NCBI GenBank assembly: GCA_964577515.1
Contig: CAZNZN010000001.1
Coordinates: forward strand, 876 to 64,875
Length of the DNA: 64,000 nucleotides
Source: an uncultured Candidatus Saccharibacteria bacterium
GTDB taxonomy: Bacteria > Patescibacteriota > Minisyncoccia > Phycocordibacterales > UBA9973
Reading direction: 5' to 3'
Shown here piece after piece: positions 23,876 through 49,781 of the stretch. The position numbers and the translations under genes are program-made. The notes beneath the pieces are model-generated. The model saw only the letters and a list, made by a program, of their open reading frames with translations. It was not told the DNA's origin and did no database searches. How positions within the stretch are numbered: the stretch's first letter is position 1; each line of letters begins with the position of its first letter.

Positions 23876-24033
23876 ATACCAAGTATACTATCTCTATTAT
23901 AAGGATTTACACTCTTATGAGAGTACCTTATGTTCCGAGGAAACCTTGGGAGGCGTGACTGACCCCGGACAGAGAAAATATTTAGCAAAATATTTTCGTG
24001 TTTTCACAGGAATATAAGTACGAGAATAGTATT

Positions 24034-24621
24034 ATGTTTACCGAACAATCATTCAACATCCCCTCATTACAAGGTATCAGTGCAAAAAACATCGAAGAAC
24101 ACCTCAAGCTCTACGCTGGGTATGTAAAAAATGCAAACACTATCGTTGAAAAAATGGCAACTATCGACAGCGAGAAAGATGCTTACGTACTTGGAGAACT
24201 CTTCCGTCGGTTTAGTTTCGAATACAACGGCATGCGAAACCATGAAATATATTTCTCTTCGTTTGAAGGGGGAGCAGCGCCACTTAACCCAGAGAGTGCC
24301 CTCGGCAAAACACTTCTTGGACTTTTTGGAAACTATGAAACATTTGTGAGAGAGTTCACCTCACTCGCCCTCACCCGCGGTATCGGGTGGGCAATGCTTT
24401 GGTACGACACAAAGACAGAAAAAATACTTGCATCGTGGGTAGATGAACAACACCTCGGACAACTTCAAGGATGCGCACCAATAGTCGCGCTCGATATGTG
24501 GGAGCATTCTTACGTTGCTGACTACCACCCTTCTGGCAAGAAACAGTACGTACAAGATTTTTTTGCAAACATCAACTGGACTAGCGCTGAAAAACGGTTC
24601 GAAGATGCAATAAAAAAGTAA
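24034..24621 (+). CDS. sod: Fe/Mn superoxide dismutase
   Basis: DMWEHSYVADY (D-x-WEH-x-YY signature), plus N-terminal helical and C-terminal domains. Start trimmed to MFTEQSF. Confidence 0.85.
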   Translation: MFTEQSFNIPSLQGISAKNIEEHLKLYAGYVKNANTIVEKMATIDSEKDAYVLGELFRRFSFEYNGMRNHEIYFSSFEGGAAPLNPESALGKTLLGLFGNYETFVREFTSLALTRGIGWAMLWYDTKTEKILASWVDEQHLGQLQGCAPIVALDMWEHSYVADYHPSGKKQYVQDFFANINWTSAEKRFEDAIKK

Positions 24622-26026: not shown

Positions 26027-26044
26027 ACTAAAAGTGTAACAAAC

Positions 26045-26770
26045 TTACAGCAAACTACTGAGTGTATAGTCTTGCACGAGATCGGTCTCTTCTGCTTTTG
26101 AAAACACTTTTTTATATTTTGCGCCTTTTGCACCCTTCACACGCTTTTCACACGCAGCCCATGTCTTGTCGACATGCACTTTACCTCCAACAAAAGAAAC
26201 ATACGAATACGCTTCTTTACCTTTGTTTGCTGACGGTGCTTTTTTCGGAGCTGACTTTGGCGGTGTTTCAGCAAGTTGTGCAATATATTTGGTATATGTC
26301 CCTTTGAACAAAGGGATCTTTTTCCCTAGCGCATAGGCGACTGCAAGCTCATCACAACGATCATTGAACTCATGCCCGCTATGCCCTGCCACTTTTACTA
26401 AGTGCAAGTGACGCCCGAGTGTGTCACGAAATGTAAGCAATTTTTGCCAATACTGTTTGTTCTCAACAGGCTTCTTTGTTGTCGCTGCTATCCAGTTATT
26501 ACGCACCCACCCATCAAGCCAAGAGTGTATCCCGTTTAATACGTATGTTGAGTCTGCGTGTAGTACTACTGTGTACCCCTTATATTTTTTTATTGCGAGT
26601 GCAAGTGCTTGTACAACAGCCTCAAGTTCCATCTGATTGTTTGTTGCAGGATCTCGTGCACCGGCTATTTCAACCACCTCTTTATCAGTCATGAGCACAG
26701 CCGCCCATCCACCTTTTCCAGGATTCCCTCGTGACGCCCCGTCGGTATATACAATCAATTCTTTTGTCAT
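26045..26770 (-). CDS. rnhA: ribonuclease HI with a C-terminal hybrid-binding (Cauli_VI/HBD) domain
   Basis: VYTDGASRGNPGKGGW...TNNQMEL...DELA catalytic core. C-terminal YSYVSFVGGKVHVDKTWAACEKRVKGAKGAKYKKVF resembles the RNase H1 HBD. Confidence 0.75.
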   Translation of the reverse strand: MTKELIVYTDGASRGNPGKGGWAAVLMTDKEVVEIAGARDPATNNQMELEAVVQALALAIKKYKGYTVVLHADSTYVLNGIHSWLDGWVRNNWIAATTKKPVENKQYWQKLLTFRDTLGRHLHLVKVAGHSGHEFNDRCDELAVAYALGKKIPLFKGTYTKYIAQLAETPPKSAPKKAPSANKGKEAYSYVSFVGGKVHVDKTWAACEKRVKGAKGAKYKKVFSKAEETDLVQDYTLSSLL

Positions 26771-26808
26771 GTAGAAAGTATACCAAAACAAAAAAAACAC
26801 TGTTGTAA

Positions 26809-27129
26809 TCAACAGTATCCTTTATCTAAAACAATCAATAAATCCTGAATAACAAGCCTAAACTGCTCCCATTGTTCATTTTTTGACTGGTCGTTATACC
26901 GTGGATGTTCTTTGAACCAACACTCAATAACATCTATTGGTTCAAGAGATAGTGCTCCTGCATAAGCGGAAAGCCTTGCTAGTGTCATATGAGCATGACC
27001 TCTTTCTATTTTGGAAAGAAATGAGCTAGAAATTCCCATTAGCTTCGCAAAATCTTTTCCTCGGCGTAACCCTTTTTTGATTCTAAGAGAAACAAGAACA
27101 TCACCTATACTACAAAGGTTTTTTTCCAT
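26809..27129 (-). CDS. XRE-family HTH transcriptional regulator
   Basis: Cro/C1-type helix-turn-helix (FAKLMGISSSFLSKIERG). Confidence 0.65.
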   Translation of the reverse strand: MEKNLCSIGDVLVSLRIKKGLRRGKDFAKLMGISSSFLSKIERGHAHMTLARLSAYAGALSLEPIDVIECWFKEHPRYNDQSKNEQWEQFRLVIQDLLIVLDKGYC

Positions 27130-27168
27130 AGTTATTTTTTAAAAAGAATACTAATGATTTCTATTTTG

Positions 27169-28806
27169 TCAAAAACTTTCCTGTATCCTCACTCGCACCC
27201 CTCCTTTCCAGCCAGCTTCGAGGGTGCCGATAAACGAGATTGTCGCACCAGGAACATATTGATTTTTCATTTCATCACCAACAAAAAAGGTAAACGCAGT
27301 AGCAATCCCTGTAGCATCGCGCACGACACACTCAAGGTGCTCTTTGTTTTTGCCGAACATCTTTGTACTAAGTATTTCGACATCCTCAAAAAGAAATCGT
27401 GGCTCAGGGTTCCCTACACCAAACGGCGCAAGCGCACGGAGCTTTTGTAGATGACGCATCGTTGCGATACCAAGTGGGAATGAAAGCGCATTCTCACTCT
27501 CGGTCGTATCTGCACTATGATCAACACGTTCAATTGCGGCGTTGAGCTCTTGTTCGAGAAAATGTATCTGCTCTTTTGCTACTGCGAACCCTCCTGCTGC
27601 TTGGTGCCCCCCTGCATGAAGCAACACTCCCTCGGGAAGTGCTTGAAAAAGATATGCAGCATGATGCTCGTCGAGCATGCGACATGATCCCTTGATGATA
27701 CCGTCTCCACTTTCGCCCCAAACAAAGAAACTCCGCTCATATGTTTCTTGGAGTTTGGTCGCAACGAGTCCGAGCACTGCTGGTCGCCACGTGAGATCTC
27801 CGAGGACAACAATCGGCGGGAGCTCCCGTGCTTCGAGTTTTTTGTGCGCTTCTTTGACGATACGAGCAACGAGTGTCTTTCGTTCGTTATTGATAGCTTC
27901 GAGTTTCTTGACGATTGCAAGCGCAGTGCTTGTATCTTCTGTTGCAAGGAGTTCAAACGCGAGCATTGGAGTGTCCATACGAGATGCCGCATTTAACCGC
28001 GGCGCAACAGAGAAGGTCAGATCGCTCTCGGTGAGTGTGTCGGGGTTCATATAGTTTTCAGCAAAGAGTGTGCGCAGACCGACGCGTCGAGTCTTTCGCA
28101 TGACGAGGATGCCGTAGGAAGCGAGCATTCTATTTTCTCCGACAAGTGGCACCATATCTGAAAGTGTTGCAAACCCGACTAAGTCGAGAAGCCATTTCTC
28201 CCACCCTTCTTTGATACCAAACTCATCGCGATGTTTTTCGAGAAATGCACAGACGAGATAAAACGCGACCCCCGCACCACAGGGATCACTGTTGGGGTAT
28301 GCACTCTTTTTTGGGTGGACCACTGCAAGCGCACTTGGAAGTTCGGCAAGAGGCTGGTGGTGATCAGTGATGATGACATCGATACCACGACTACGAGCAT
28401 CAGCTACTTCTGCAAGCGCGGTAATCCCGAGGTCTACAGTGATGATGAGCGTCACCTCTTGCGCTTCAAGCGCATCGAGTCCTCGAGTACTCATTCCATA
28501 CCCCTCATCGTGTCTATCAGGGATATATACATGGACTCGGTCAGCGCACCCTACTGCGCGAAAGAGATCGAGAAGGACAACTGCCCCTGGGATACCATCA
28601 CAGTCATAGTCTGCATAAATACCGAGACGCTCACCGTTTTTGATGGCAGTATAAATACGAGAGATAGCGGTGTGCATATCTTCAAAAAGCCAAAGGTCAC
28701 CGAGCGTGTACTCTGGGAAAAGAAACGGTTTCACTCCCGCTTCATCAATACCACGCGCTTCAAGGAGTAGTTTCTGAAATTCATCCGGAGTGGGAATAGT
28801 CTGCAT
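27169..28806 (-). CDS. recJ: single-stranded-DNA-specific exonuclease RecJ
   Basis: DHH (DYDCDG, ITDHH) plus DHHA1 (GGHQAAGG) motifs. Start taken as MQTIPTP. Confidence 0.85.
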   Translation of the reverse strand: MQTIPTPDEFQKLLLEARGIDEAGVKPFLFPEYTLGDLWLFEDMHTAISRIYTAIKNGERLGIYADYDCDGIPGAVVLLDLFRAVGCADRVHVYIPDRHDEGYGMSTRGLDALEAQEVTLIITVDLGITALAEVADARSRGIDVIITDHHQPLAELPSALAVVHPKKSAYPNSDPCGAGVAFYLVCAFLEKHRDEFGIKEGWEKWLLDLVGFATLSDMVPLVGENRMLASYGILVMRKTRRVGLRTLFAENYMNPDTLTESDLTFSVAPRLNAASRMDTPMLAFELLATEDTSTALAIVKKLEAINNERKTLVARIVKEAHKKLEARELPPIVVLGDLTWRPAVLGLVATKLQETYERSFFVWGESGDGIIKGSCRMLDEHHAAYLFQALPEGVLLHAGGHQAAGGFAVAKEQIHFLEQELNAAIERVDHSADTTESENALSFPLGIATMRHLQKLRALAPFGVGNPEPRFLFEDVEILSTKMFGKNKEHLECVVRDATGIATAFTFFVGDEMKNQYVPGATISFIGTLEAGWKGGVRVRIQESF

Positions 28807-28841
28807 GCCAAGAAGTGTACCATGGTACACTTCTTGGCATG
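28804..28841. repeat. 38-bp perfect palindrome spanning the divergent recJ and HIT start codons
   Basis: CATGCCAAGAAGTGTACCATGGTACACTTCTTGGCATG. Confidence 0.9.
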
Positions 28842-29712: not shown

Positions 29713-29737
29713 AAAAGCCCGGAGAACCGGGCTTTTT
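29713..29737. terminator. intrinsic terminator after pgk (end of the pilus-tpiA-pgk operon)
   Basis: AAAA-GCCCGG-AGAA-CCGGGC-TTTTT. Confidence 0.55.
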
Positions 29738-29796: not shown

Positions 29797-30921
29797 CTAT
29801 TTCAACGATTGTATCCCAGGAAGTGTTCCTTTTGCAAGATATTCAATAGTAGCACCCCCTCCTGTAGAGACAAAAATATTTTTTTTGCCAAGTGTTTTTT
29901 GTTCGACCACTGCCCCAGTGTCCCCTCCACCGATCAGTACTGATGCTTTGGTCGAAGCCATAGCATCCGCGAGCCCAAGTGTTCCTTTGGTGAACCCTTT
30001 TTCATACCATCCTGTAGGCCCATTCCAGACTACGACCTTTGCTTGTGCTATTTTTGCAGCAATAAGCGCTACACTCTGAGGACCAATATCAACGATAACA
30101 TCTCCCTTTTCTACAGCATCAATAGTAACCGCTGTTTTCTTTTCATCACGAAGTACAACAACATCAACAGGTAAGAGCACTTTTGGAGAACGAAGTAGCG
30201 TAGCGATCTCTTTTTCATACCCATTTTCCACGACTGACCTCCCGACTTCAAGTCCTGCAGTTTTATAGAAAGCATTGAGTATTGCTCCTGCGATCACTAC
30301 CTGATCGGCATCTTTTATAAAACGTTTCAAAAGAGGAATCTTGGTACTAAACTTTGCTCCACCGAGAATAAACAAGAAAGGATGCTTTTTATTTTCGAAA
30401 AGTGGCGCAATAGCACGTAGTTCTTTTTCTAGCTGGATACCAGCATATGAGGGGAGGTAGCGTGGCACTCCGACCACTGACGCATGCGCTCGGTGTGAAA
30501 CAGAGAAAGCGTCATTGACATACACCTCTGCAAGACCAGCAAGTGTCTTAGAAAATGATGCAGCATTTTTTTCTTCTTCAGGATATTGACGAATATTCTC
30601 AAAAAGCATTACGGTGTCTTGTGTAACTGCAGCACAAAGCTCGACAATCGCGCTGGTGTTGTAGAGTGGTTCAGTAATAAACACTGTTTTGAACTTGTTG
30701 GAAAGGTATGTTGCAATAGGACGTAGTGAAAGTGACGCATCACCAAGGTGTGCAAGCAGGAGTACCTGGTAGCCTTTCCTCTGCAAAGTTTGGATAGAAG
30801 CTACTGCCGCATCAATACGTCGAGTATCGAGTATTTTGTTCCCTTTTAACGGAACATTGAAGTCTACACGAACAAGCGCTCGACCTTTTTTTGTTTTTGG
30901 AATAGTAGTAAGTGATTTCAT
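29797..30921 (-). CDS. pgk: phosphoglycerate kinase
   Basis: Pgk N and C domains (RVDFNVPL..., GGGA...). 374 aa. Confidence 0.95.
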   Translation of the reverse strand: MKSLTTIPKTKKGRALVRVDFNVPLKGNKILDTRRIDAAVASIQTLQRKGYQVLLLAHLGDASLSLRPIATYLSNKFKTVFITEPLYNTSAIVELCAAVTQDTVMLFENIRQYPEEEKNAASFSKTLAGLAEVYVNDAFSVSHRAHASVVGVPRYLPSYAGIQLEKELRAIAPLFENKKHPFLFILGGAKFSTKIPLLKRFIKDADQVVIAGAILNAFYKTAGLEVGRSVVENGYEKEIATLLRSPKVLLPVDVVVLRDEKKTAVTIDAVEKGDVIVDIGPQSVALIAAKIAQAKVVVWNGPTGWYEKGFTKGTLGLADAMASTKASVLIGGGDTGAVVEQKTLGKKNIFVSTGGGATIEYLAKGTLPGIQSLK

Positions 30922-30925
30922 ACGG

Positions 30926-31708
30926 TTACGCGAGAAGTGCTATATTTTTTGCGAGCATTGCAAAACGGCGCGCATCAAGACTTACCCGACCAACAAGAAA
31001 GCCTTGTGCACCACCTTCACTAACAAATGCTGCAGCATTCTGTTCGTTGACAGAGCCTCCATAAAGGATAGTAACCTTCTGACTCTCTTTTTCACCGAGA
31101 GCATCAGCAATCACTTTTCTAATAAAAATCACCATTTCTCGACACTCTACAGGCGTTGCTTCACGTACTGCATTTTTTCCAATAGCCCAGACTGGTTCAT
31201 AAGCGATCACTAGCTGTTTTAACTGCGCTTTTGGTATGCTTGTTACTACTTTTTCTACTTGTTCTTTGACAGTACTCAAATACCACCCATGCGCATCACG
31301 TTCTTTTTCTCCAACACAAACAATAGGGATAATCTTCTTCTGCAAAAGAAGCTCCGCAGAAAGTGCTACCTGTTCATCGGTTTCTCCACGAGCACGACTT
31401 TCTGAGTGGCCGACAATACAATACTGCGCACCGTATGACTTGAGCATCCCAGCGCTTACGAGCCCTGTCTGAGCTATCTCGCTCATTGCAGCTACTCCCT
31501 GTGCTCCTACAGCGAGTGTTTTCTTACTCTGTTTTGTAATAAAAGGAAGGTGTATTGTCGGAACACAAACAGCAACACCAATTTTTTTATAGGTTCGAGC
31601 AATAGCAAGCGTTTTTTTAGCAAGTGAGAGAGCATCAGAAGCTTTTTCTGGTGCCATTTTCCAATTCCCAATCAAAAGTATCATAGGAAGCAGTATACCA
31701 CGCCGCAA
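30926..31708 (-). CDS. tpiA: triosephosphate isomerase
   Basis: GNWKM, IVGHSESR, and GGS loop motifs. The true start may be the internal MILLIGNWKM. Confidence 0.9.
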   Translation of the reverse strand: MRRGILLPMILLIGNWKMAPEKASDALSLAKKTLAIARTYKKIGVAVCVPTIHLPFITKQSKKTLAVGAQGVAAMSEIAQTGLVSAGMLKSYGAQYCIVGHSESRARGETDEQVALSAELLLQKKIIPIVCVGEKERDAHGWYLSTVKEQVEKVVTSIPKAQLKQLVIAYEPVWAIGKNAVREATPVECREMVIFIRKVIADALGEKESQKVTILYGGSVNEQNAAAFVSEGGAQGFLVGRVSLDARRFAMLAKNIALLA

Positions 31709-31711
31709 ATG

Positions 31712-33199
31712 TTACTCTTCGAGCTCTTCCCAGAGAATGATTTGGTATTTGTCAGATGCAAGCGGAAAATTTGGGGGTGGCGCATAGAGAAGGTTTGTAT
31801 CGTAGGTAATAGTACGAGTATCATATCCTGTGCCATCAGTATATGCATACCCATATCGTTGATTTGTCCCAAGCATTCCATAAAGCGAGATGCTATTGCG
31901 ATACACGTTGCTTCCACAATAGTTTGTCCCCCCACCATTTGTTGGAGGATCATAGTACGGCCGACCAATACGTCCATTTTGAGCAATCAATGCAGCATCA
32001 ATTTTAAGATTATTTGCTGAAAATAGCCCTGTAGTAATGTTATTTTGAGCAACAAGAGCAATAACATCTGACCCGTCATAATTGGTATAGCTCAGGTTAT
32101 TATTAACAATGATAGATCTTCGAGTTGTCGCGTTGTCAGGAAAACGAGCAGCCGCAATAGTAATTCTAGCGGTGTTTATTTGCCCCTCAACCCATACGTT
32201 GTCATCAACATAAATCAACCCATTAGAAGGTATCGTGTAATTTGCAACAAATGTTTTAGTGCCTATGCTCCAAGTACCCCAGTTTGCCTCACCAGTAACA
32301 TTTGTACAGTTATTTGGTGCAGCAGTGAGTGTATTTACCTTATACACATCAAAAGTATCATTTGTTTTGAGGATTATTTGGTACCCTTGAGCTCCAGACG
32401 GCAGAAGCGCTACTCCTCCTGCTTGCGCCTGTGTTTTGATTGTTGCGAGATCGTTTGTAATCCCAGCAAAATCAACAGCAGGAACAGGAAATGATCGTCC
32501 AGCCTTAAAAACATCTGTCCGAGTAGCAATTGAAGAAGGCGGTGCTTCTGCTGGACGAAAAGAAGTGTTTACCGTACCTGTACCAGCAGTAATATGCGTA
32601 TGAACACCAAACTCATTTCCCCCACTATGATCAGGATCATCGTAGGAAGTCTTTGCACTAGTTATTTTGTTCCATGCAACTCCATCAAAACGGATTCCTC
32701 CGTTTGAATGCAATGGCCCATACACAATAGTCCCTTCTCCAAAACGAATATCCGCATTCGCAAGTACTGAGTATTTTGCCAAAGAAGGGATAGCAAGATG
32801 GACAATGATGCTTCGAGAAGCTGAAGTATCAGCAAGCGCTGTTCCTGTTGATTTTATTTTTACCAATGTTGATCCGTCTGGTGGTGGTGTAATACTGAGT
32901 GTGTAAGTACCAATTTGTTGCCCCTCTTTGTCAGTAAACGGGTATGTATACGGTCCGGCCCCAGCATTTCCGAGAGTGTACCCATTCTGATAATGTGCCA
33001 AATACCATCGTGCATACTCGATACCAGCTTCTGCTATCTGCAAGGACACCTCTCTGCTTTGCACTCGTCGAGAAAGTTTTGTACTTGTCGCTCCCCATGA
33101 AACAAATGCGACAACCACCGTTATACTAATTGCCGCAAAAATCAACACCCCCATAAGAAGCATCCCTTTTTGTTTTAAGGTGTAAAGATTTTTTCTCAT
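31712..33199 (-). CDS. PilX-like minor pilin / pilus-associated protein
   Basis: N-terminal KQKGMLLMGVLIFAAISITVVVAF resembles the PilX N-terminal domain. The rest is a Gly/Thr/Asn-rich beta-rich region. Confidence 0.5.
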   Translation of the reverse strand: MRKNLYTLKQKGMLLMGVLIFAAISITVVVAFVSWGATSTKLSRRVQSREVSLQIAEAGIEYARWYLAHYQNGYTLGNAGAGPYTYPFTDKEGQQIGTYTLSITPPPDGSTLVKIKSTGTALADTSASRSIIVHLAIPSLAKYSVLANADIRFGEGTIVYGPLHSNGGIRFDGVAWNKITSAKTSYDDPDHSGGNEFGVHTHITAGTGTVNTSFRPAEAPPSSIATRTDVFKAGRSFPVPAVDFAGITNDLATIKTQAQAGGVALLPSGAQGYQIILKTNDTFDVYKVNTLTAAPNNCTNVTGEANWGTWSIGTKTFVANYTIPSNGLIYVDDNVWVEGQINTARITIAAARFPDNATTRRSIIVNNNLSYTNYDGSDVIALVAQNNITTGLFSANNLKIDAALIAQNGRIGRPYYDPPTNGGGTNYCGSNVYRNSISLYGMLGTNQRYGYAYTDGTGYDTRTITYDTNLLYAPPPNFPLASDKYQIILWEELEE

Positions 33200-33828
33200 T
33201 GTTGTATTTTAAGGTTACGAATAGCGACCTGCGAACTGACTTCTGCTACAGGAGGAGGTTGCTTTGTATCTTGATCAATTCTTATCTTAATACCAATCAA
33301 GCGCACCGACTCCAAAGCACCCGAAGTTGGGTCAACAATACCTCCAGAGCCTCCAGTATAGGTATCACTATAATAGGTAAACATAGAGATACTTTCAGAT
33401 TGATTTCTGACCCCTGTCATAAAGGTAGTAGTTATTTTATTTGCTTGGTTATAGACAAGCGGGTTCCCTGTTGGTTTAATCACTTCTTTTATTAGATTCG
33501 TCCCTGAAACACTGTACTTAACCCATTCTTTTAAATTATCATTATCAATATCGCTATAGAAAGAGAAGCTATAGGCCCCTATTGCATCAATCGGGTACGC
33601 ACCAGCATTTGAAGGGCTCGATGAACGAATTTCTTCAGTCATTGGACGAAGGAGTTTTTGTGCACTATCGGCAGTAGAAAGTGTATTATTAAAATATCGC
33701 CCATAAGAGAAAACATCTGCTTCAAACTTTCCAATAACAACACTGAGTACTCCGACGATAGCAACAACGACAAGAATCTCAATGAGTGTAAGTCCTTTAT
33801 TCTTATGGAGTGATTGTTGTTGTATCAT
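33196..33828 (-). CDS. type IV pilin-like protein (prepilin N-terminal methylation motif)
   Basis: KGLTLIEILVVVAIVGVL class-III signal (G/TLIE). Start overlaps the upstream gene. Confidence 0.7.
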   Translation of the reverse strand: MIQQQSLHKNKGLTLIEILVVVAIVGVLSVVIGKFEADVFSYGRYFNNTLSTADSAQKLLRPMTEEIRSSSPSNAGAYPIDAIGAYSFSFYSDIDNDNLKEWVKYSVSGTNLIKEVIKPTGNPLVYNQANKITTTFMTGVRNQSESISMFTYYSDTYTGGSGGIVDPTSGALESVRLIGIKIRIDQDTKQPPPVAEVSSQVAIRNLKIQQ

Positions 33829-35572
33829 ACGTATCACCATTAATTGTAATATCTTTTACTACTGACGTATAGCCGGACTTACTTATAATCATACTGTATA
33901 TACCGTTTGAAAGTCCCCCAAAGTCAATCTGCCCAGGAGGAAGACATCCAGAAGAGTATGTAATACCTATATCACTTATACTTGGTGTTTTGGTTGTATC
34001 AATGGTTGAAAGAAATATCTTATAACGAAGGTATTGGTCTCCATTATGACTATCAGCGATATCTGCTCCGTTCACTGTGTAGTATGTTTGATCTGTGCCA
34101 TCAGGACCGACAAAGTTCCATGTTGTAGCATCATTATTGGTTGCTATTTGAAAACGTATCGCACTTGCTCCTACTCCAACAGGCTGAGTCCCTGGGAGCC
34201 AAGATAGTTGCTGAAATGTTGTCGGCGCACCAAAGTCGATAGTTGAAGAGGTAAGCGATCCGTTTTGAATGTATAGTCCAGCGCTTCCCAAAAGAGTGAT
34301 TGCTCCAACCGTGCTGTAGTCAATATTTCCATCAGAAGAAGCAAATTTTGTTTCATCGGTAAACAATGACTGTCCGCCACCACCGCTCCAATCTGTCTGC
34401 GTTAGCGAGCCGACACTTGTTTGACCACTACGACTTGCTGGACCGGAAAGAGCTACAGTAGCACCTGCGACAGGAAGACCTGAAGCATCAACAACTGCAA
34501 CAACAAGACGGTTGGGGGCTTCATCGTCTAGTGTAAGCGTCACTTGCGGCGCAGCTCCGGGCGAAATTGATAGCGGAGCAATAGGGTTGGTCCCCACAAT
34601 ATCGTATGTTGTCCCATTAATAACAGGAGAGTACGTGTCCCATTCAATACCTGAAAGGGTCAATGTACTTCCTGTCACAGAAAAAGGAATAGTAGTTTTT
34701 CTAACATCAGGGCTAGTTCCTATAAGTTTTGTTCCTACAAAACTACCAGATACACCACTGATGACAGTACATTGTGTAGTGCGCAAAGCAAGTGTTACTG
34801 TTGCGGTTGTATCAATAGCAAACGTTGATTGTGTAACAGTATTTGCAGCAACAGTAAGATGCGGCTTCACTGGATTAGGGTTACCTGTATCACCAGGCGT
34901 ATAGGTTCGGTCAACAGAATACCCTGATTTTGTCACAGTGATTTTATACTGCTCCGTCGAAGGAGGAGCATCAACAATAGTAAGCACCCCGTTCGTATCG
35001 GTAGTATCAGTAATGTTCACCTGTGGATTTAAGGCGGTGTTTTGTATTGTTACAGTAGCAGCAGGAACAGGTGCACCATTTGCATCAATAGCTTTTATTA
35101 TAAGCGCACCATTTCCATTTTCGGTTTCTAACCCTTTAGGAGCAACACCACTAGTATATTCAGCGGTAACAGGAGTAATACAAGAAGTGCACGCTACCTC
35201 TATAGAAACAAGTTTGTTGTCTGCAGGAGATAAATCGTTTGGTGTACCACCAAGGGTGCCATCCGCAGGGTAATCAATGTTACGAATTGTTGTTGTGACA
35301 AGAAAAGTAATACCGTTACGAACAACAGTCGCTGTCTGCGCAACGATTCCTGAAGGGATACCGTTTATTGTTCCAACATCTGTATATTGGAGGTTACGAA
35401 TAAATTCCATTTTTTCACTGGCGATCTGCGTTGCGATAGTCTTAACACGGATCCGTGTCGCAACTTCAGAAAGCTTTGCATATAATTGATATAGTGCTAC
35501 CGAGAAAACAACAAAAACAGCTGCTGCCACAAGTGTTTCTATAAGTGTTGTTCCTCGCTGAGAGCGACGCAT
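33803..35572 (-). CDS. large (589 aa) type IV pilin-like protein with carboxypeptidase-regulatory-like beta-sandwich repeats
   Basis: RGTTLIETLVAAAVFVV prepilin motif. Repeated ATVTIQNT...TDTNGVLTI-like segments. Confidence 0.65.
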   Translation of the reverse strand: MRRSQRGTTLIETLVAAAVFVVFSVALYQLYAKLSEVATRIRVKTIATQIASEKMEFIRNLQYTDVGTINGIPSGIVAQTATVVRNGITFLVTTTIRNIDYPADGTLGGTPNDLSPADNKLVSIEVACTSCITPVTAEYTSGVAPKGLETENGNGALIIKAIDANGAPVPAATVTIQNTALNPQVNITDTTDTNGVLTIVDAPPSTEQYKITVTKSGYSVDRTYTPGDTGNPNPVKPHLTVAANTVTQSTFAIDTTATVTLALRTTQCTVISGVSGSFVGTKLIGTSPDVRKTTIPFSVTGSTLTLSGIEWDTYSPVINGTTYDIVGTNPIAPLSISPGAAPQVTLTLDDEAPNRLVVAVVDASGLPVAGATVALSGPASRSGQTSVGSLTQTDWSGGGGQSLFTDETKFASSDGNIDYSTVGAITLLGSAGLYIQNGSLTSSTIDFGAPTTFQQLSWLPGTQPVGVGASAIRFQIATNNDATTWNFVGPDGTDQTYYTVNGADIADSHNGDQYLRYKIFLSTIDTTKTPSISDIGITYSSGCLPPGQIDFGGLSNGIYSMIISKSGYTSVVKDITINGDTYDTTTITP

Positions 35573-35579
35573 GGTATTG

Positions 35580-36788
35580 TTATTTAATTGAATCCATTAT
35601 TGAATACATAGGAGAGAGCATTGAAACCGCAAAAAATCCAACAGCTGCTCCGATAAAAATCATAAGTACTGGTTCAATAATCGTCGAGAGATCTTTAGTT
35701 TTATTATCGACTTCTCCTTCATAAAAAGTAGCGACGTCTAAAAGCATCGTTCCAAGATTTCCTGTCTCCTCTCCTACTTCTATCATCTCGCTCATCATCA
35801 CAGGGTAGAGTTGTGTATGTGTTTTAAATACTCCAGAAATAGGAGCACCTTTCTGCACTGCAGCTTCGACTTCTTCAAGCACTTCTTTATAATACGCGTT
35901 TTGCACAACCTCTTTTGTAATAGCAATCGCTCGACTAATAGAAACGCCTGACCCTAGAAGAGATGAAAGTGTTCGCGTTGTACGAGCAGTATTCACTTCC
36001 TTTGCAATCCCTCCAACAACAGGAAGACGTGTAGAAAGCCAATCAATCATCCTTTTTGTTCTTGGTATCTTACTTATCGCTACTCCAAGACCAACAACCG
36101 CAGCAAGCGCGAGGAAAACTAACAGCACATGATTTGATATCAAGTCACTAAGTCCTATAACAAATTTTGTTGAACCAGGAAGTTCTGTACCAAGATCTTT
36201 AAAAGTCTTCGTGAGTGTTGGGACAACATAAATAAACATAAGTATCGCTATAAGTATGATCGCTGACATGATGATAGATGGGTACATCATTGCGCTTTTT
36301 ATTTTTTTATTTAACGCATAACTTTTTTCAAGGTTAAGCCCGATTTCATTGAGTGTTTTTGGGAGACCACCTGACTCTTCTCCTGCGCGAACCATAGCAA
36401 CAAACAGCGGTGAAAACACTTTGGGAAACTTTGTAAGCCCTTCAGAGAACGTCCCTCCTTTATCAATTGTTTCTGAGAGTGTTTGGATTATTTTTTTAAA
36501 GTAAGCATTTGTAGTCTGCTTAGAGAGTACCTGAAACGCTCTCGAAAGAGAGAGTCCTGCGCGAAGCATCCCTGAAAGATTTTTAGTAAAGATAATTTTT
36601 TCACTCAGCTTAACACTGTTACCTATAAAAGGAATAGTGATATTCATAGCCCCCTTCTTTTCTTCAAGCATAACAGGTGAAAGCCCTTGATTTTTTAGCG
36701 CAACAATAGCAGTTGCTTTATCATCGGCCTCGAGGGTTCCACTCACTACTCTTCCTGTTACTTGTCGTGCTTTGTAAGAAAACTTCAT
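35580..36788 (-). CDS. pilC: type IV pilus assembly platform protein PilC (GspF family)
   Basis: 402 aa. Two T2SSF repeats and 3 TM helices. Confidence 0.85.
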   Translation of the reverse strand: MKFSYKARQVTGRVVSGTLEADDKATAIVALKNQGLSPVMLEEKKGAMNITIPFIGNSVKLSEKIIFTKNLSGMLRAGLSLSRAFQVLSKQTTNAYFKKIIQTLSETIDKGGTFSEGLTKFPKVFSPLFVAMVRAGEESGGLPKTLNEIGLNLEKSYALNKKIKSAMMYPSIIMSAIILIAILMFIYVVPTLTKTFKDLGTELPGSTKFVIGLSDLISNHVLLVFLALAAVVGLGVAISKIPRTKRMIDWLSTRLPVVGGIAKEVNTARTTRTLSSLLGSGVSISRAIAITKEVVQNAYYKEVLEEVEAAVQKGAPISGVFKTHTQLYPVMMSEMIEVGEETGNLGTMLLDVATFYEGEVDNKTKDLSTIIEPVLMIFIGAAVGFFAVSMLSPMYSIMDSIK

Positions 36789-36853
36789 GTCTCTCTAGTA
36801 TACCGTGTGACATAAAAAAAACGACCCTTGGTAGGATCGTTTTGTTGAAAACA

Positions 36854-38602
36854 TTACTCACTCACCACACGGAGCACTTCTTCAATGGTTGTTTTTCCTT
36901 GCACTGCTTGAAAGATACCATCTTCAATCATTGTTATCATCCCCTCTTTTTTTGCTTGTGCCTCTACCTCGTCAGCAGATCCGCCGCGTAGAATGATTTC
37001 CTTCACTGCGGGGCTCACTTTGAGTGCCTCATGAATACCAACGCGGCCCTTATATCCATCCTCTGATTCTTCATTTTTTACTGGACGAAAGAGAGGTATC
37101 TCTTTCCATGGCGTTTTTGGTTTTATTATCTGCTCTCCTTCAAGGAACCCACGGATACGTTCAAGATCAACTATCTTGTTAAGGTTCACTATCTCTGCAT
37201 CAGTTAAGAAATACTGTTCTTTTTTTGCAGTGAGTCGACGTACAAGACGCTGTGCAATAATCACCTTTGCAGTAGAAACGATCAGAAACGGTTCAACCCC
37301 CATATCTATAAGCCGAGGAATAGCCCCAGCAGCTGAGTTGGTGTGGATAGTAGAAAGCACCAAGTGACCAGTAAGCGCAGCATTCACCGCAAGAGAAGCC
37401 GTCTCTCCATCACGAATCTCCCCCACCATAATGATATTTGGATCTTGTCGAAGGAGTGCACGAAGCCCGTTTGCAAACGTCATACCAATCTCACTTTTTA
37501 CTTGCGTTTGATTGATACGTGGCATTTGATACTCAATCGGATCTTCAATGGTTGAGATATTCACCGCAGGAGTATTTAAAATATCAAGCATTGTATAGAG
37601 CGTCGTTGTCTTTCCTGATCCTGTCGGACCAGACGCAAGCACAATCCCTGAGTGCTGTTTCATTCCTTCGTGGATACTTTCAAGACATGATCCGTGAAAC
37701 CCAAGCCCTTCAAGAGTGAACCCGTGTGAAGACTCACGCAAAATACGTATCACCGTCTTCTCGCCAAAGTATGTTGGGAGTGTTGAAACACGAAATGATA
37801 CGGGTGAATCATCAAGTACGATTTTGAACCGTCCGTCTTGTGGAAGACGTTTTTCGTCAAGTTTCAAATTTGAAAGGACCTTGATACGAGCCGTCATTGC
37901 TGGAGCAGCGTCTTTCGGAAGCGTCATAGCGTCATGGAGTATCCCGTCAATACGATATCGCACCACCAGTGACTCTTCTCCAGGCTCAATATGTACATCA
38001 GAAGCTCCTTGCAAGATAGCGTGTGAAATAAGACTGTCAACGATTTTCACCACTGGCAAATCCTCTGCAAGTTCTTTGAGATCTTTTTCTGATGTTGTGT
38101 CGTCTTTCTCATCAACTTTTTGAATACTCCCGACCTCTTTTTGAATAATAGAATCAAACTCTGCCTGAAGACTCTTTTTGTACTGCAGTAGTACCGCCTT
38201 TATAGATTCACTATCAGTAAGACGAGGAAGAATACGAAGTCCTGTTTTTTTCTTTACGAAATCAATCGCAGGAAGGTTATCAATATCGAGAAGACATATT
38301 TCGAGATCGTTTCCCTTTTTTCGACAAGGCACCACGTTATATTTACGTGCAATTGGTTCTGGAATTAGTTGCAGTATTTCTTTATCGATTTTTTCTTTTT
38401 CAATATTAAGGTATGGGACACCGATCACGTACGCCTGCAACTTACGAAGCTCTTGCTCTTTGAGTTTGTTGTTTGTAAGGAGGTAGTCAGAAAGCGTTGT
38501 TCCTTTTGCTTTTTTTTCTGCTTCAAACGCATTCAAATCATCAACAGAGATGATGTTCGTATCAAGAATAAGTCGTGTTAATTTTGCTTCATCAACAACC
38601 AT
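36854..38602 (-). CDS. pilB: type IV pilus assembly ATPase PilB (GspE family)
   Basis: Walker A GPTGSGKTTTL, Asp box, His box. N-terminal GSPII-like domain. Confidence 0.9.
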   Translation of the reverse strand: MVVDEAKLTRLILDTNIISVDDLNAFEAEKKAKGTTLSDYLLTNNKLKEQELRKLQAYVIGVPYLNIEKEKIDKEILQLIPEPIARKYNVVPCRKKGNDLEICLLDIDNLPAIDFVKKKTGLRILPRLTDSESIKAVLLQYKKSLQAEFDSIIQKEVGSIQKVDEKDDTTSEKDLKELAEDLPVVKIVDSLISHAILQGASDVHIEPGEESLVVRYRIDGILHDAMTLPKDAAPAMTARIKVLSNLKLDEKRLPQDGRFKIVLDDSPVSFRVSTLPTYFGEKTVIRILRESSHGFTLEGLGFHGSCLESIHEGMKQHSGIVLASGPTGSGKTTTLYTMLDILNTPAVNISTIEDPIEYQMPRINQTQVKSEIGMTFANGLRALLRQDPNIIMVGEIRDGETASLAVNAALTGHLVLSTIHTNSAAGAIPRLIDMGVEPFLIVSTAKVIIAQRLVRRLTAKKEQYFLTDAEIVNLNKIVDLERIRGFLEGEQIIKPKTPWKEIPLFRPVKNEESEDGYKGRVGIHEALKVSPAVKEIILRGGSADEVEAQAKKEGMITMIEDGIFQAVQGKTTIEEVLRVVSE

Positions 38603-38650
38603 AACTGTATTGTAACAAAAAAACCGACATAGTGTCGGTTTTTTTGTTTT

Positions 38651-39739
38651 TTAAAACTCTTTAAAAATTGATTTTCGCTTATTGAGCTCAGACGTATCGT
38701 TTGGATCGTACACGCCGTTGGTATAACACCCCGGATCATTTGCATCTTTTACACCGTCACCGTCATTATCAATACCATCGCTACATTCAGGTTGCGGTGC
38801 ACCGGTCACTGTAACTGTTGCGTTGGCATCAGTAGTCCCTCCTGCTCCAGTACATGAGACAGTGTAGGTAGTAGTACTTGCAGGAGATACTGCGAGAGAT
38901 CCACTCGTTGCACCTCCAGTATTAAACCCAAACCCACTACATGATGTTGCGTTTGTTGAACTCCAAGTAAGTGTTGAAGAATTCCCGAGCGGTATCGATG
39001 TAGGGTTTGCAGTAAGAGAAGCTGTTGGAGCAGGTGGATTTACCTGACAAATACTTCCGTTCCATGTTGTCCCCCCAGCACATGAAGCTGTTGCAGAAGA
39101 CTGTGCGAGAAGCACTGCATTGTGGTACAGATAAAAATCAGTTTGCCCATAGCCAAGCGTTGTCGCTTGCGTCCCTCCAGCAAGTGGAGACGGGGTAAAT
39201 GATGCAGGAGAGCCAGTGTTTCGAGTAATCGCTGTAGGGTTCACCGTGAGATTTGCAGTAGTCCATGAAACAGTACTTCCACAAGACGAAGCATTTGCAG
39301 CAATGGTACACCCTACAGCTGATAGGGTCCCTGAAGGCGCCCCTCCGTTGTTTACCACAACAAGCGCAGTATCTGACGCATTCGCATACCCAGCCTTCAC
39401 ACAGGTTATTTCAAAGAGATGACTTCCAGCGGTAAGTCCTGTGATATCTTCAAACTGTGTCGCGTTTGCACTCTTATTCCCTGACCACCAACCGTTGTTT
39501 GTTGCTGTACAACTATCAGGAGATCCTGTGGTGGTCCATGTAAGACGTGTTTGGTTGGTAGGGAGAGTCATTGTATCTGGAACAGCAGTAAGTGTTACTG
39601 TGATAGCAACAGGAGCTCCTCCATCTACAACATACGGGAGTGCACTACTATAAGGGACAAAGCCTGCTAAAGCCTCCCTTGAAAAACCAAAGAAAGTGAA
39701 AGCAGTTAAAACAATAAAAGAAAGAAAGTATTTATTCAT
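38651..39739 (-). CDS. secreted Thr/Ser/Gly-rich protein with a C-terminal Asp-rich Ca-binding-like motif
   Basis: Signal peptide, then repeated Cys-containing beta-rich segments. C-terminal CSDGIDNDGDGVKDANDPGC resembles TSP3/dockerin-like Ca-binding motifs. Confidence 0.55.
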   Translation of the reverse strand: MNKYFLSFIVLTAFTFFGFSREALAGFVPYSSALPYVVDGGAPVAITVTLTAVPDTMTLPTNQTRLTWTTTGSPDSCTATNNGWWSGNKSANATQFEDITGLTAGSHLFEITCVKAGYANASDTALVVVNNGGAPSGTLSAVGCTIAANASSCGSTVSWTTANLTVNPTAITRNTGSPASFTPSPLAGGTQATTLGYGQTDFYLYHNAVLLAQSSATASCAGGTTWNGSICQVNPPAPTASLTANPTSIPLGNSSTLTWSSTNATSCSGFGFNTGGATSGSLAVSPASTTTYTVSCTGAGGTTDANATVTVTGAPQPECSDGIDNDGDGVKDANDPGCYTNGVYDPNDTSELNKRKSIFKEF

Positions 39740-39768: not shown

Positions 39769-41724
39769 TTATTCACAATATTCTCCATCAACGATTTCAA
39801 TACTCAAAGGGAGTGCCCCACTCATATCTACGTTCGACCATGTAAACGTAGGGTCTGGGTCACCTCTTTGCTGTACTGCACAGGTCGACATTCTGTTTCC
39901 GTACGTGTCATACAGGTTAGTATGACCTCCTGGCATTGAGCTACCCAAAGACCATCGAATATACACATCAGATACTCCAAAAAAATTTAGAGGGCCGGCA
40001 GTGCCACCACCAGGACCAAGGGGGAATGGATTATTTGATGGCACTAATGAAACACCGTCAACAGCAGCATCTTCCAAAATAGTCGCCAGTGAATTATTTG
40101 TAGCGTTAAACTCATGTACACCAGAATTCACAGAATCATCTACCTCAACGGTAAAGCTGACATAAAACGTCTGTGGCAAAGGAGGAGTTGTGGGGACGTT
40201 CACTGTGAAATACTGTGATGCCGGTGCAAAATAAGGACTATATGCAGGAATAGAAACTACGCCAGGAAAAAGATTAGCTGTGTTTCCTGTAGGAAGATCT
40301 ATCCATGAGAAGGTAACCGTTTGATCAAGTGCTGACAAATTTTCAATGTAGCCATCCACCTGTATCTCATCCCCTTGTGAAAAAGGTTGACCAGGGTGGG
40401 TAAAGTTGGACAAGCTTATAGTCACATACAACTCATTATTTGCACCAGCATAAAACTGAGCAGCTTGTACTTCCGCTGTAGGAAGAACACTAAGAGCAAG
40501 GAATATAACAAACCCAGCAATGATTTGCGGAGATGCTCGTCGCTTCTTTATATAGAGTCCGATAAGTGCAATAACAACAAGGATAAGAACGAGAAGCACC
40601 GCTCCTTGTCCCCCAGAAAATACACTAGGATTCTTTGTTGATGTTGTGGCAATACTGGTTTCGTCTTGCGCAACTGTAGCACCTGCAGCATTTGTGACTG
40701 CAACAGAAACTACTGGATTAAAACAGTTATGTTTTACTTGCACAGTTGCTGTTTGTACCCCGTTTTTTGGTGACGAAACTACTGCTTTACCGCAGGTAAG
40801 CCCTCCACTTGTCTTTATGACAACTGCAGCATCTTTGAAAACAGCCCCTGCACTAGTAAGCGCAAATGCTATTACTGCTTGTTCACCTTTAGCGTAATAA
40901 TCCTTATCAGCAAGAATACTTTTGATAGAAGCAAATGATCCAAAGACACTGTATCCCGCAACAACACTGTTTGATACTGATTGTCCGTTTACAAGCTGTA
41001 CGACTGTTTTATAGAGCCCTGCATCTTTTGGAACAGGAAGAGTGACTGCAATTGTTTTCTTTTCAGCTGGCTTCACCAAAAAAGGAGTAGTCGTACCTCC
41101 GATAGCTTCTACAGAAGCGCCGTAGATGTTTCCTGAAAATGTTTTAAAAGAAGGAGTGCCTGCAATAGGACCACTTGCGGTGTTGGTAACAACACAGGTA
41201 AGCACCGGTGCTTCGTTTTCACGGAGAAGCACTGTAGATGATAGTTGCAACGACTTTTTCTGTTCAGCACCACTGACAGTACAGCTTCCTGGGACAATAA
41301 CGAGTCCCTTCTCTTCTGCACTGAAGGTGACATCTTTCAATGTCATCAGTCCAAGTGTAAGTCCTGACTTTTCAGAAACAACAAGCTGCATCGTGTAGGT
41401 ACCACTAAGCACTGCTGGTGGTACATAGACTGCACTCTTCTTTAGAGTGCCTTGTTCCGCTAGAGCAAAAACCTCTGGGAAAACTGTCTCATCAACAACA
41501 ACCCGATCTTTGTTCAAAAGGCGAATACCGTACATCACTTCAGGATGTGCACCTGCACCATTTGTCATGGTAAATGAAAAGGCAACCGAACGACCTACTT
41601 GGTCAGTAACGGAAGCACCTTGAATATTTACTTGCGAAAGTTGTCGAACTTGTTGCGCAAACGCGACAGGCGAAGCGACAAACATTCCGAGGACAATCAA
41701 AACACCTACAATGATTCTCTTCAT
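39769..41724 (-). CDS. large surface protein with two extracellular domains joined by a predicted TM helical hairpin
   Basis: Signal peptide MKRIIVGVLIVLGMFVASPVAFA, a ~390-aa domain, TM (GAVLLVLILVVIALIGLY), KKRRASPQ, a second hydrophobic helix (IIAGFVIFLALSVLPTA), then a ~260-aa Pro-rich domain. Confidence 0.55.
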   Translation of the reverse strand: MKRIIVGVLIVLGMFVASPVAFAQQVRQLSQVNIQGASVTDQVGRSVAFSFTMTNGAGAHPEVMYGIRLLNKDRVVVDETVFPEVFALAEQGTLKKSAVYVPPAVLSGTYTMQLVVSEKSGLTLGLMTLKDVTFSAEEKGLVIVPGSCTVSGAEQKKSLQLSSTVLLRENEAPVLTCVVTNTASGPIAGTPSFKTFSGNIYGASVEAIGGTTTPFLVKPAEKKTIAVTLPVPKDAGLYKTVVQLVNGQSVSNSVVAGYSVFGSFASIKSILADKDYYAKGEQAVIAFALTSAGAVFKDAAVVIKTSGGLTCGKAVVSSPKNGVQTATVQVKHNCFNPVVSVAVTNAAGATVAQDETSIATTSTKNPSVFSGGQGAVLLVLILVVIALIGLYIKKRRASPQIIAGFVIFLALSVLPTAEVQAAQFYAGANNELYVTISLSNFTHPGQPFSQGDEIQVDGYIENLSALDQTVTFSWIDLPTGNTANLFPGVVSIPAYSPYFAPASQYFTVNVPTTPPLPQTFYVSFTVEVDDSVNSGVHEFNATNNSLATILEDAAVDGVSLVPSNNPFPLGPGGGTAGPLNFFGVSDVYIRWSLGSSMPGGHTNLYDTYGNRMSTCAVQQRGDPDPTFTWSNVDMSGALPLSIEIVDGEYCE

Positions 41725-41843
41725 ATTAAAATTTTTATATTGAAAACAACTACTAATACTTGTAAAGTATAGCATTTAAAAAAGAGGAAAAGAAAAAACC
41801 TTCGGTGTACACCGAAGGTTTTAATCTTTTTGCATCTTACTAC

Positions 41844-49729: not shown

Positions 49730-49766
49730 AAAAAATACTCGGACCATGTCCGAGTATTTTTTTTAC
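49727..49766 (+). terminator. intrinsic terminator after rny
   Basis: A8-ATACTCGGAC-CAT-GTCCGAGTAT-T8 (10-bp stem). Confidence 0.65.
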
Positions 49767-49781
49767 TGTATACTTGTAAAT

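Follow-up and report, generated by a model that had tools for sequence, protein, structure and literature searches.

Few surface machines are conserved in Patescibacteria; type IV pili are one of them and are thought to serve host attachment and DNA uptake. In the 64,000-nt stretch of DNA analyzed here (the window), genes for such a pilus stand on the same strand as two glycolytic genes, tpiA and pgk, and the locus raises the question of whether pilus assembly and lower glycolysis share one operon. The initial annotation had read it in this way, as a single seven-gene unit in which tpiA and pgk were co-transcribed with, and translationally coupled to, the pilus genes. The seven minus-strand genes it described are all present, with identities given by HMMs.

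Genes and junctions

Listed from the upstream end, the genes are as follows.
36854..38602, minus strand: pilB, assembly ATPase of the type IV pilus, with an MshEN domain at the N terminus (PF00437, E 2e-120; PF05157, E 2.5e-12)
35580..36788, minus strand: pilC, inner-membrane platform protein (PF00482, E 1e-58, in two stretches or repeats)
33803..35572, minus strand: 589-aa prepilin-like gene (G/TTLIE, Glu5; CarboxypepD_reg/Ig-like domain)
33196..33828, minus strand: 210-aa prepilin gene (KG/LTLIE, Glu5; the longest ORF, 33196-33840, encodes 214 aa)
31712..33199, minus strand: 495-aa gene for a pilin resembling ComZ (KG/MLLMG, Gly at +5, no Glu5)
30926..31684, minus strand: tpiA, triosephosphate isomerase, 252 aa from ATG 31684 (PF00121, E 1e-62)
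29797..30921, minus strand: pgk, phosphoglycerate kinase (PF00162, E 2e-106)

PilB matched TIGR02538 over its full length with 534 bits, under the equivalog cutoff, and the matches of PilC to the GspF and PilC NCBIfam models were likewise below their cutoffs. Neighboring genes overlap or nearly touch at pilC-589 (7 nt), 589-210 (overlap), 210-495 (the ATGA at 33196-33199, correctly noted at the outset), and tpiA-pgk (4 nt), but not at pilB-pilC (65 nt) or between the 495-aa gene and tpiA (27 nt). The gaps of 3 to 5 nt claimed elsewhere are thus wrong at pilB-pilC and pilC-589. The overlap placed at 33803-33840 is real and spans 38 nt with the longest ORF of the 210-aa gene, but only 26 nt from the start at 33828, which is the one used by public gene calls and homologues; a Shine-Dalgarno-like GGTGA lies 5 nt upstream of this gene's ATG.

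The gap of 3 nt claimed before tpiA needs a TTG start at 31708. The conserved N terminus of triosephosphate isomerase, M(I/V)LL(I/V)GNWKMA, begins instead at ATG 31684 (here MILLIGNWKMA), and public gene calls independently report an enzyme of 252 aa with a 27-nt gap upstream. The TTG is not conserved. The start of tpiA is most likely ATG 31684, and with this start a 27-nt spacer separates tpiA from the last pilin gene.

Promoter-like boxes and hairpins

Further elements flank these genes.
38614..38648, minus strand: terminator-like hairpin of the upstream secreted-protein gene (-19.8 kcal/mol, z = -6.5), then a U-run
38609..38617, minus strand: TGtTACAAT, an extended -10 element separated by 6 nt from the pilB ATG
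36814..36843, minus strand: intrinsic-terminator-like hairpin between pilB and pilC (11 bp, 4-nt loop, U8)
36797..36802, minus strand: TATACT, a -10 hexamer lying 8 nt upstream of the pilC ATG
31692..31700, minus strand: TGgTATACT, an extended -10 element inside the 27-nt spacer, separated by 7 nt from the tpiA ATG
29713..29737, minus strand: bidirectional-looking terminator hairpin after pgk (RNA folding), predicted to end the tpiA-pgk unit

A -10-like box ends 5 to 9 nt before the tpiA ATG in 29/29 related loci, with a TGn extension in 27, against a chance expectation of ~0.06 per locus. It is kept in the 13 loci that have no upstream pilus gene, often after a terminator, and information content upstream of tpiA peaks only at -15/-14 and from -12 to -7. 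We infer that this box is a leaderless promoter of tpiA-pgk. Such a box precedes pgk in just 5/29 loci, never with the TGn extension, and none is found in the tpiA-pgk junction here; pgk is the operon partner of tpiA, and the close linkage claimed for the two, with its 4-nt gap, stands. Translational coupling of tpiA to the preceding pilin gene, on the other hand, does not fit the spacer and its conserved element. Of the two signals that the initial annotation had named as counting against its reading, a promoter-like box is present between that pilin gene (31712..33199) and tpiA but a terminator is not: no hairpin fits the spacer, and RNA folding gave no stable fold there. Because of this, it is plausible that transcripts of the pilin genes also run on into tpiA.

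The pilB start has a similar geometry, with a -10-like hexamer ending 5 to 9 nt before the ATG in 11/12 related loci (TGn-extended in 8) and, in the window, the hairpin of the upstream gene just before the element; the box is a putative leaderless promoter of pilB. Boxes of the TGnTACACT type end 5 to 9 nt before the pilC ATG in 7/12 related loci, and the box here, which has no TG extension, is a putative promoter of the pilC-pilin unit. The hairpin between pilB and pilC has a folding energy of -13 kcal/mol with a modest z of only -1.5; it is seen in some relatives (e.g., L006) but not all, and pilB and pilC abut in L026 and L027. The initial annotation had placed the first terminator at 29713-29737, a hairpin that is real, but had overlooked this one. 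Judged by sequence, an operon free of internal promoters and terminators is not what the locus presents, given the tpiA box, the recurrent pilC box, and the hairpin with U8 that splits pilC from pilB here.

A TG two bases before the hexamer, contacted by sigma-70 region 3, marks extended -10 promoters, and leaderless genes with a -10 box ~7 nt before the start codon are known from Mycobacterium, Streptomyces, and Deinococcus-Thermus. As in those genes, the boxes described here end 6 to 8 nt before ATG or GTG, come with no Shine-Dalgarno sequence, and stand at predicted operon-first genes; heavy use of the TGn extension sets the boxes here apart from those groups. With a box at this distance, the predicted transcription start would coincide with the start codon or adjoin it. 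Our literature search found no description of leaderless expression of this kind in Patescibacteria. A generic sigma-70 scan of the window was uninformative (28 sites versus 24.6 expected); as the scan requires a -35 element, the extended -10 boxes escaped it. Two further, weak -10-like hexamers were rejected as promoters: a TAAAAT before the 495-aa gene, which has no TG extension and is present in 0/5 relatives, and a TACAAT inside the 589/210 overlap, which also has no TG extension, lies in coding sequence, and is 14 nt from the real ATG. Rfam detected only tRNAs in the window, none of them within the pilus-tpiA-pgk region.

Three pilin-like proteins as a candidate tip complex

Prepilins with a class III signal (G at -1, Glu at +5, hydrophobic helix) are present. 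The 210-aa protein passes both HMMs (N_methyl, 28.4 bits; TIGR02532, 26.7 bits), the 589-aa protein falls just under the N_methyl cutoff (20.7 against 21.2 bits) while its homologues carry PF07963, and the 495-aa protein is atypical, with Gly at +5. Searches of pilin-family profiles against PDB sequences returned N-terminal helix matches only (geopilin, PilA) or none.

The 589-aa protein has weak matches to GspI (TIGR01707, E 4e-4) and to ComGE, and its Glu12 is invariant across 44 homologues. One stretch matches CarboxypepD_reg significantly (E 1e-10); the additional repeats of this domain in the earlier description are visible by eye only. It is probably a minor pilin in the GspI/PilV position with a large surface extension. 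The 210-aa protein had been proposed as the major pilin. Its AF2 model (pLDDT 86.5) has XcpW, EpsJ, GspJ, and Thermus TTHA1219 as top Foldseek matches, the first three with E values of 5e-4 to 2e-2, a probability of ~1, and TMt of 0.5 to 0.6, and by this modeled fold it is instead a minor pilin of the GspJ/PilW-like type.

The 495-aa protein has no Pfam or NCBIfam domain, and a profile of 54 homologues found no PDB sequence at E <= 1. Its model has, in a single chain, an N-terminal pilin helix, a pilin domain like that of GspK, and a large beta-solenoid of the ice-binding-protein type. Structurally, ComZ of Thermus thermophilus (PDB 6qvi) is its best match and the only one over the full length, with a low global TM-score of 0.31 and ~11-13% identity. 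ComZ is a DNA receptor at the pilus tip that joins a GspK-like pilin domain to a beta-solenoid and is likewise reported to have Gly at +5 (PMC6561018). As modeled, the 495-aa protein resembles a ComZ-like tip pilin; the label PilX-like given earlier was roughly right as to the GspK-like fold and is less precise. The GspK-like domain, the lack of Glu5, and the last place in the gene order are all those of a K-position pilin.

In relatives, the same site is occupied by a cassette of four genes (about 150, 157, 166, and 580 aa), the last three of which match the 589-, 210-, and 495-aa proteins in order by hhalign; the best match of the 589-aa protein is the second cassette gene (94.6% probability over 75 columns in the N-terminal helix region). 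The set of pilin-like genes is thus not unusually large, as had been thought: three is the normal core minor-pilin set, and the alternative set of the relatives has four.

Known systems offer three points of comparison. The proposed I-J-K order directly downstream of the platform gene is that of GspI-GspJ-GspK/XcpV-W-X of type II secretion and PilV-W-X of type IVa pili, with a modeled GspJ fold in the J position, a GspK-like domain without Glu5 in the K position, and a priming and tip role that we infer here as well. Differences are the beta-solenoid inserted where GspK has an alpha-helical insertion, the size of the putative I-position protein (589 aa versus ~120 aa), and the lack in the window of a GspH/FimU-like fourth member, which relatives have. 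The Thermus pilA1-pilA2-pilA3-comZ locus similarly has a cluster of pseudopilin-like minor pilins whose last member is large and atypical, with Gly at +5, and the gene just upstream of that one is GspJ-like here and matches TTHA1219. However, no sequence similarity to ComZ is detectable (no profile match, 11-13% identity), there are three pilins here and four there, the first one here has a ~450-residue extension, this locus has no adjacent major pilin gene and no outer-membrane secretin in view, and DNA binding by the 495-aa protein is putative, by analogy with ComZ. The pilus loci of TM7x, a member of the Saccharibacteria, encode small major pilins and the large minor pilins PilX1 and PilX2 (PMC11623550; PMC12206443). 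They share with this locus patescibacterial PilB and PilC, minor pilins resembling type II secretion pseudopilins, and one oversized minor pilin with a noncanonical signal peptide that is proposed to sit at the tip. They differ in lineage (the window is from a Paceibacteria/Nomurabacteria-like patescibacterium), in the beta-propeller of PilX2 where the protein here has a modeled solenoid, and in holding the major pilin, PilD, PilT, and PilM/N/O, which the search of this window did not turn up. Literature searches for a connection between Patescibacteria and either ComZ or leaderless mRNA had no relevant result.

A six-frame regular-expression search of the 64 kb for class III signal motifs found only the three known genes, and no motif belongs to a small pilin; the major pilin gene may lie elsewhere in the genome. 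PilD, PilT, and PilM/N/O were absent from the window ORFs scanned, a set without the smaller ORFs and several ORFs of the ribosomal-protein region. The description of a type IV pilus cluster consisting of PilB, PilC, and three prepilin-like genes, with no secretin or PilMNO in view, is thus borne out, and the search for pilD and pilT that had been suggested came back empty for those ORFs.

Transcription units and possible roles

We consider it probable that the locus of this Paceibacteria-type patescibacterium consists of three adjacent same-strand units, namely, pilB, pilC with the three minor pilin genes, and tpiA-pgk. Each would open with an extended -10 promoter (TGnTAYAMT) ending 6 to 8 nt before the ATG, and within units genes would be joined by overlaps or gaps of 4 to 7 nt (pilC to 589 to 210 to 495; tpiA to pgk). 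The 589-, 210-, and 495-aa proteins would form a GspI/J/K-type priming and tip complex, made up of an I-position pilin with a large Ig-like surface extension, a pilin of GspJ/PilW fold, and a capping pilin without Glu5 that has a GspK-like domain and a beta-solenoid as in ComZ. Sitting on PilC and driven outward by PilB, this complex would nucleate a filament built from a major pilin whose gene lies elsewhere. tpiA-pgk would be a housekeeping operon, a neighbor by inherited synteny that receives read-through from the pilin genes at most.

A single operon from pilB to pgk, tying the pilus to lower glycolysis, seems to us quite improbable. It is consistent with the shared strand, with the hairpin-free spacer, and with the 16/29 relatives in which a pilus gene ends 11 to 35 nt directly upstream of tpiA, in loci whose tpiA identity ranges between 43% and 71% (in L027, the abutting gene is pilC). 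However, HIT and recJ on the downstream side show the same degree of synteny, so this adjacency looks like an inherited block and not a functional fusion, and the unconserved TTG, the tpiA box that persists in loci without pilus neighbors, and the pilC box and hairpin upstream all argue against one unit. Slightly less probable still is that the TGnTATAMT boxes are A/U-rich translation-initiation signals, for example for S1-dependent ribosome loading in a lineage that makes little use of Shine-Dalgarno sequences, in which case one long mRNA could still exist. Their A/T richness, their fixed distance from the ATG, and the lack of an evident -35 element would fit such a role. The conserved TG two bases before the hexamer points instead to an extended -10 promoter, and so does the distribution of the boxes, which precede genes that come first after a terminator (pilB, the gene at 12583, and tpiA of several relatives) and are absent at the operon-internal pgk and pilin genes; a box precedes the 495-aa gene, taken as an internal control, in 0/5 relatives. 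The motifs upstream of internal genes are different ones, GGTGA in the case of the 210-aa gene and a AAGAGTTA-like sequence in that of ribosomal-protein genes. Across the window, 14% of TAYAMT hexamers are followed, 5 to 9 nt on, by the start codon of an ORF of 60 aa or more, and the same count for control hexamers gave 1.6 to 7.3%.

With the three units retained, the main alternative concerns what the tip binds. The preferred role is DNA binding for uptake, by analogy with ComZ, a DNA-binding tip pilin (PMC6561018) and the sole full-length structural match, and in keeping with ComEC and RecJ, which are encoded, along with RNase H and an MBL-fold protein, 1 to 9 kb downstream. The complex could instead be a host-cell adhesin in which the 495-aa solenoid and the 589-aa Ig-like extension bind the surface of the bacterium that hosts this epibiont, which is a serious possibility though not the one we would expect; CarboxypepD_reg/Ig-like domains are common among surface adhesins, and Saccharibacteria need the large minor pilin PilX2 for host binding (PMC11623550), whereas the match to ComZ and the nearby ComEC and RecJ speak for DNA. 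The two roles can coexist.

Overall, the locus is an ordinary one. The link between pilus and glycolysis is most likely one of neighborhood only and should not be built upon. The conserved -10-to-ATG geometry gives a simple way of placing operon boundaries and start codons in such genomes, as in the corrected tpiA start, and the three pilin-like genes provide a concrete candidate for a DNA- or host-binding tip in Paceibacteria, a class without a genetic system. We put forward only tentatively, and with more doubt than confidence, that thousands of Paceibacteria combine a ComZ-like solenoid DNA-receptor cap with leaderless extended -10 expression of most operon-first genes. If so, operon-first genes, including pilB, pilC, and tpiA, would run leaderless from extended -10 promoters, and the locus, together with ComEC and RecJ, would be a dedicated DNA-scavenging machine for organisms unable to make nucleotides.

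Gene content and junctions of the pilus-glycolysis region

The window comes from a Patescibacterium and has a GC content of ~43%; among species-representative genomes, those with the nearest tpiA loci carry the labels Candidatus Nomurabacteria, Paceibacteria, Paceibacterota, or Minisyncoccia. HMM searches gave the following assignments for the pilus and glycolysis genes:

36854-38602, minus strand, pilB (T2SSE, E = 2e-120, plus an MshEN domain)
35580-36788, minus strand, pilC (T2SSF, E = 1e-58)
33803-35572, minus strand, 589-aa protein (prepilin N-terminus; a single significant CarboxypepD_reg domain)
33196-33840 or 33196-33828, minus strand, prepilin of 214 or 210 aa (N_methyl above cutoff)
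31712-33199, minus strand, 495-aa protein without a Pfam or NCBIfam match
tpiA, minus strand (TIM, E = 1e-62)
pgk, minus strand (PGK, E = 2e-106)

A motif search of the 64 kb in all six frames found class-III signal peptides in the three pilin-like genes only, and none of PilD, PilT, PilM/N/O, or a secretin was found among the window ORFs scanned. Just downstream (3') of pgk, 23018-28830 holds genes for DNA uptake and DNA processing:

27169-28830, minus strand, recJ
26045-26812, RNase H
24581-26026, protein with a ComEC "Competence" domain
23018-23875, separate metallo-beta-lactamase-fold protein, which may be a split-off ComEC nuclease domain

The initial annotation read the genes from pilB to pgk as a single operon on the strength of their tight spacing. 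The ATGA overlap at 33196-33199 was confirmed, as was the near-touching tpiA-pgk boundary, a 4-nt gap. The 38-nt overlap between the 589-aa and 214-aa genes holds for the longest ORF and shrinks to 26 nt with a start at Met 33828, the start seen in homologues (mostly 209 aa) and in public gene calls, which places an SD-like GGTGA 5 nt 5' of the ATG. Gaps of 3 to 5 nt had been given for the other junctions; the pilC-589 gap is 7 nt and the pilB-pilC gap is 65 nt, and the 3-nt gap before tpiA is obtained only if that gene starts at TTG 31708. Nor is the run free of terminators before 29713-29737, as had been stated, since an 11-bp hairpin and the eight U after it, at 36814-36843 between pilB and pilC, had been overlooked.

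Directly 5' of pilB, 38651-39739 and 39769-41775 encode two secreted or membrane proteins (362 and 668 aa). Both carry Ig-like repeats, and the former has an acidic double-disulfide repeat at its end. Several relatives (L001, L004, L005, L015, and L026) have weak homologues in this position. Farther away, 49719-52472 encodes a 917-aa protein with weak TrwB/TraG/VirD4-type coupling-protein domains, which may be part of a Patescibacterial type IV secretion system of the kind that a 2025 preprint reportedly describes. A tRNA cluster at 56189-58137 has five genes (three Gly, one Pro, and one Arg) with an HTH protein gene (57339-57998) among them, and a tyrosine recombinase gene (62594-63499) lies a few kilobases away; the cluster and recombinase may mark an integration hotspot, or the recombinase may simply be XerC/D.

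Three pilin-like proteins and their cassette

The AF2 model of the 210-aa protein (pLDDT 86.5) best matched the minor pseudopilins XcpW, EpsJ, and GspJ and Thermus TTHA1219 (E = 5e-4 to 3e-2; probability, ~1). By these matches to its predicted fold, the protein is a J-type minor pilin and not the major pilin that it had been labelled. Its family is small and fast evolving (87 clusters). In the 589-aa protein, Glu5 is invariant, and the matches to GspI and ComGE are weak.

For the AF2 model of the 495-aa protein (pLDDT 80), the sole significant Foldseek match was ComZ (E = 7e-8), although the global TM-score was low (0.31). ComZ combines a GspK-like pilin domain carrying an inserted beta-solenoid with Gly at position 5, is located at the pilus tip, and binds PilA2 and DNA (PMC6561018). 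The signal of the 495-aa protein (KG/MLLMG) likewise places Gly at +5. No sequence-level link between the two proteins was found, and a literature search gave no paper connecting ComZ with Patescibacteria. The family of the 495-aa protein is large and well conserved, with >3,200 clusters at 90% identity and 56 to 87% identity among the best 120 matches listed.

In relatives, the slot between pilC and tpiA holds either a three-gene cassette as in the window (L001, L002, L003, L005, and L012) or a four-gene cassette (L004, L006, L007, L009, L010, L015, L019, L025, L026, and L030) encoding proteins of ~150, 157, 166, and 576 to 609 aa, the last of which also lacks Glu5. Profile-profile alignment paired the 589-, 210-, and 495-aa proteins with the second, third, and fourth genes of this cassette, respectively (probabilities of 92 to 97%). 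On these alignments, the cassette order probably corresponds to H-I-J-K, with the H-like gene absent from the window. The last proteins of the two cassette types have similar W-x-E motifs at the end. The occupation of one slot by two alternative cassettes looks like replacement of a cassette at an unchanged locus.

Promoter-like boxes and transcription units

The TPI N-terminus M(I/V)LL(I/V)GNWKMA is common to the window and 28 to 29 related Patescibacterial loci, which places the tpiA start at ATG 31684, 27 nt past the stop of the 495-aa gene and in agreement with public gene calls (TIM, 252 aa). The intervening spacer contains TGgTATACT, ending 7 nt 5' of the ATG. A -10-like hexamer ends 5 to 9 nt 5' of the tpiA ATG in all 29 related loci, against a background expectation of ~0.06 per locus, and carries the TGn extension in 27. 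Anchoring 28 sequences on the ATG gave a profile whose information content was focused at -15/-14 (T, G) and at -12 to -7, with unconstrained flanks. The box is also present in the 13 loci whose upstream neighbour is not a pilus gene, frequently right behind a terminator hairpin. At the operon-internal controls, it occurred in 5/29 loci for pgk, never TGn extended, and in 0/5 for the 495-aa gene. The best reading of this comparative evidence is that tpiA has its own promoter. Since the ATG stands as far from the -10 box as a transcription start usually does, we infer that the tpiA-pgk mRNA is leaderless.

The same geometry recurs at other genes. TGtTACAAT lies 6 nt 5' of the pilB ATG, directly behind the strong terminator of the preceding gene, and TATACT lies 8 nt 5' of the pilC ATG; among related loci, a box precedes pilB in 11/12 and recJ in 16/18, and a TGnTACACT-type box precedes pilC in 7/12. 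Window-wide, 14% of TAYAMT hexamers have a start codon at 5 to 9 nt that opens an ORF of at least 60 aa, compared with 1.6 to 7.3% for five control hexamers. A TAYAMT box that ends 6 to 8 nt 5' of the ATG or GTG is found at many operon-first genes (for example, at the starts 12583, 23875, 26026, 26770, 49782, and 57998), often TGn extended and often immediately behind a terminator, which suggests that leaderless mRNAs are common in this genome. For several genes (RNase H, recJ, and tpiA), the longest ORF probably begins 8 to 14 codons too early. A literature search found no paper describing leaderless expression in Patescibacteria.

A perfect 38-nt palindrome, CATGCCAAGAAGTGTACCA/TGGTACACTTCTTGGCATG, at 28804-28841 includes the ATGs of the divergent recJ (minus) and HIT-family (plus) genes and places the extended -10 box TGGTACACT 7 nt 5' of each, an arrangement that would give overlapping promoters of leaderless type placed back to back. 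Relatives also have the divergent HIT/recJ overlap. Within the minus-strand ribosomal protein run at 5157-14450, operon-internal genes have a recurring AAGAGTTA-like motif 3 to 6 nt 5' of the ATG and no canonical GGAGG, and this motif may be an unusual ribosome-binding signal.

Many relatives share the block pilB-pilC-[pilins]-tpiA-pgk-(HIT, opposite strand)-recJ. A pilus gene ends 11 to 35 nt 5' of tpiA in 16/29 loci (in one, L027, this gene is pilC). Because HIT and recJ are kept no less consistently than the pilus genes, and because the upstream neighbour of tpiA is unrelated in 13 loci, the pilus-tpiA adjacency looks like an inherited gene-order block and is no evidence of functional fusion. 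In all Patescibacterial loci (L001 to L030) where pgk was found, tpiA precedes pgk; the order is reversed in the Firmicutes, Chloroflexota, and other non-Patescibacterial loci retrieved (L031 to L045).

Our best reading of the sequence is therefore three putative units, [pilB], [pilC-589-210-495], and [tpiA-pgk]. Between the last pilin gene and tpiA, comparative evidence favours a promoter, but there is no terminator: the 27-nt spacer has no stable fold, so read-through from the pilin unit into tpiA-pgk is possible. Translational coupling across this junction is not supported, given the distance of the tpiA ATG from the preceding stop and its own box in every locus, and neither is the central proposal of the initial annotation, that of a pilus operon translationally coupled to glycolysis.

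A possible tip complex

The gene identities, the fold similarities of the AF2 predicted models, and the recurrent boxes with their spacing are observed. In the mechanism that we propose, the three pilins would assemble on PilC as a priming complex, PilB would push it outward, and the pilins would come to lie at the tip of a filament whose major pilin is encoded elsewhere. By analogy with the ComZ fold, and because ComEC (24581-26026) and RecJ (27169-28830) are encoded nearby, the solenoid cap might bind DNA, a role that we propose tentatively and with some doubt. Alternatively, or additionally, the cap may bind the host surface, as a tapirin-like solenoid, an Ig-like extension, and the precedent of Saccharibacterial PilX2 (PMC11623550) would favour.

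Type IV pili in Patescibacteria are already well known, and the core minor-pilin set is ordinary. The region offers two modestly useful leads, a candidate ComZ-like tip pilin and a conserved promoter geometry of putatively leaderless type.
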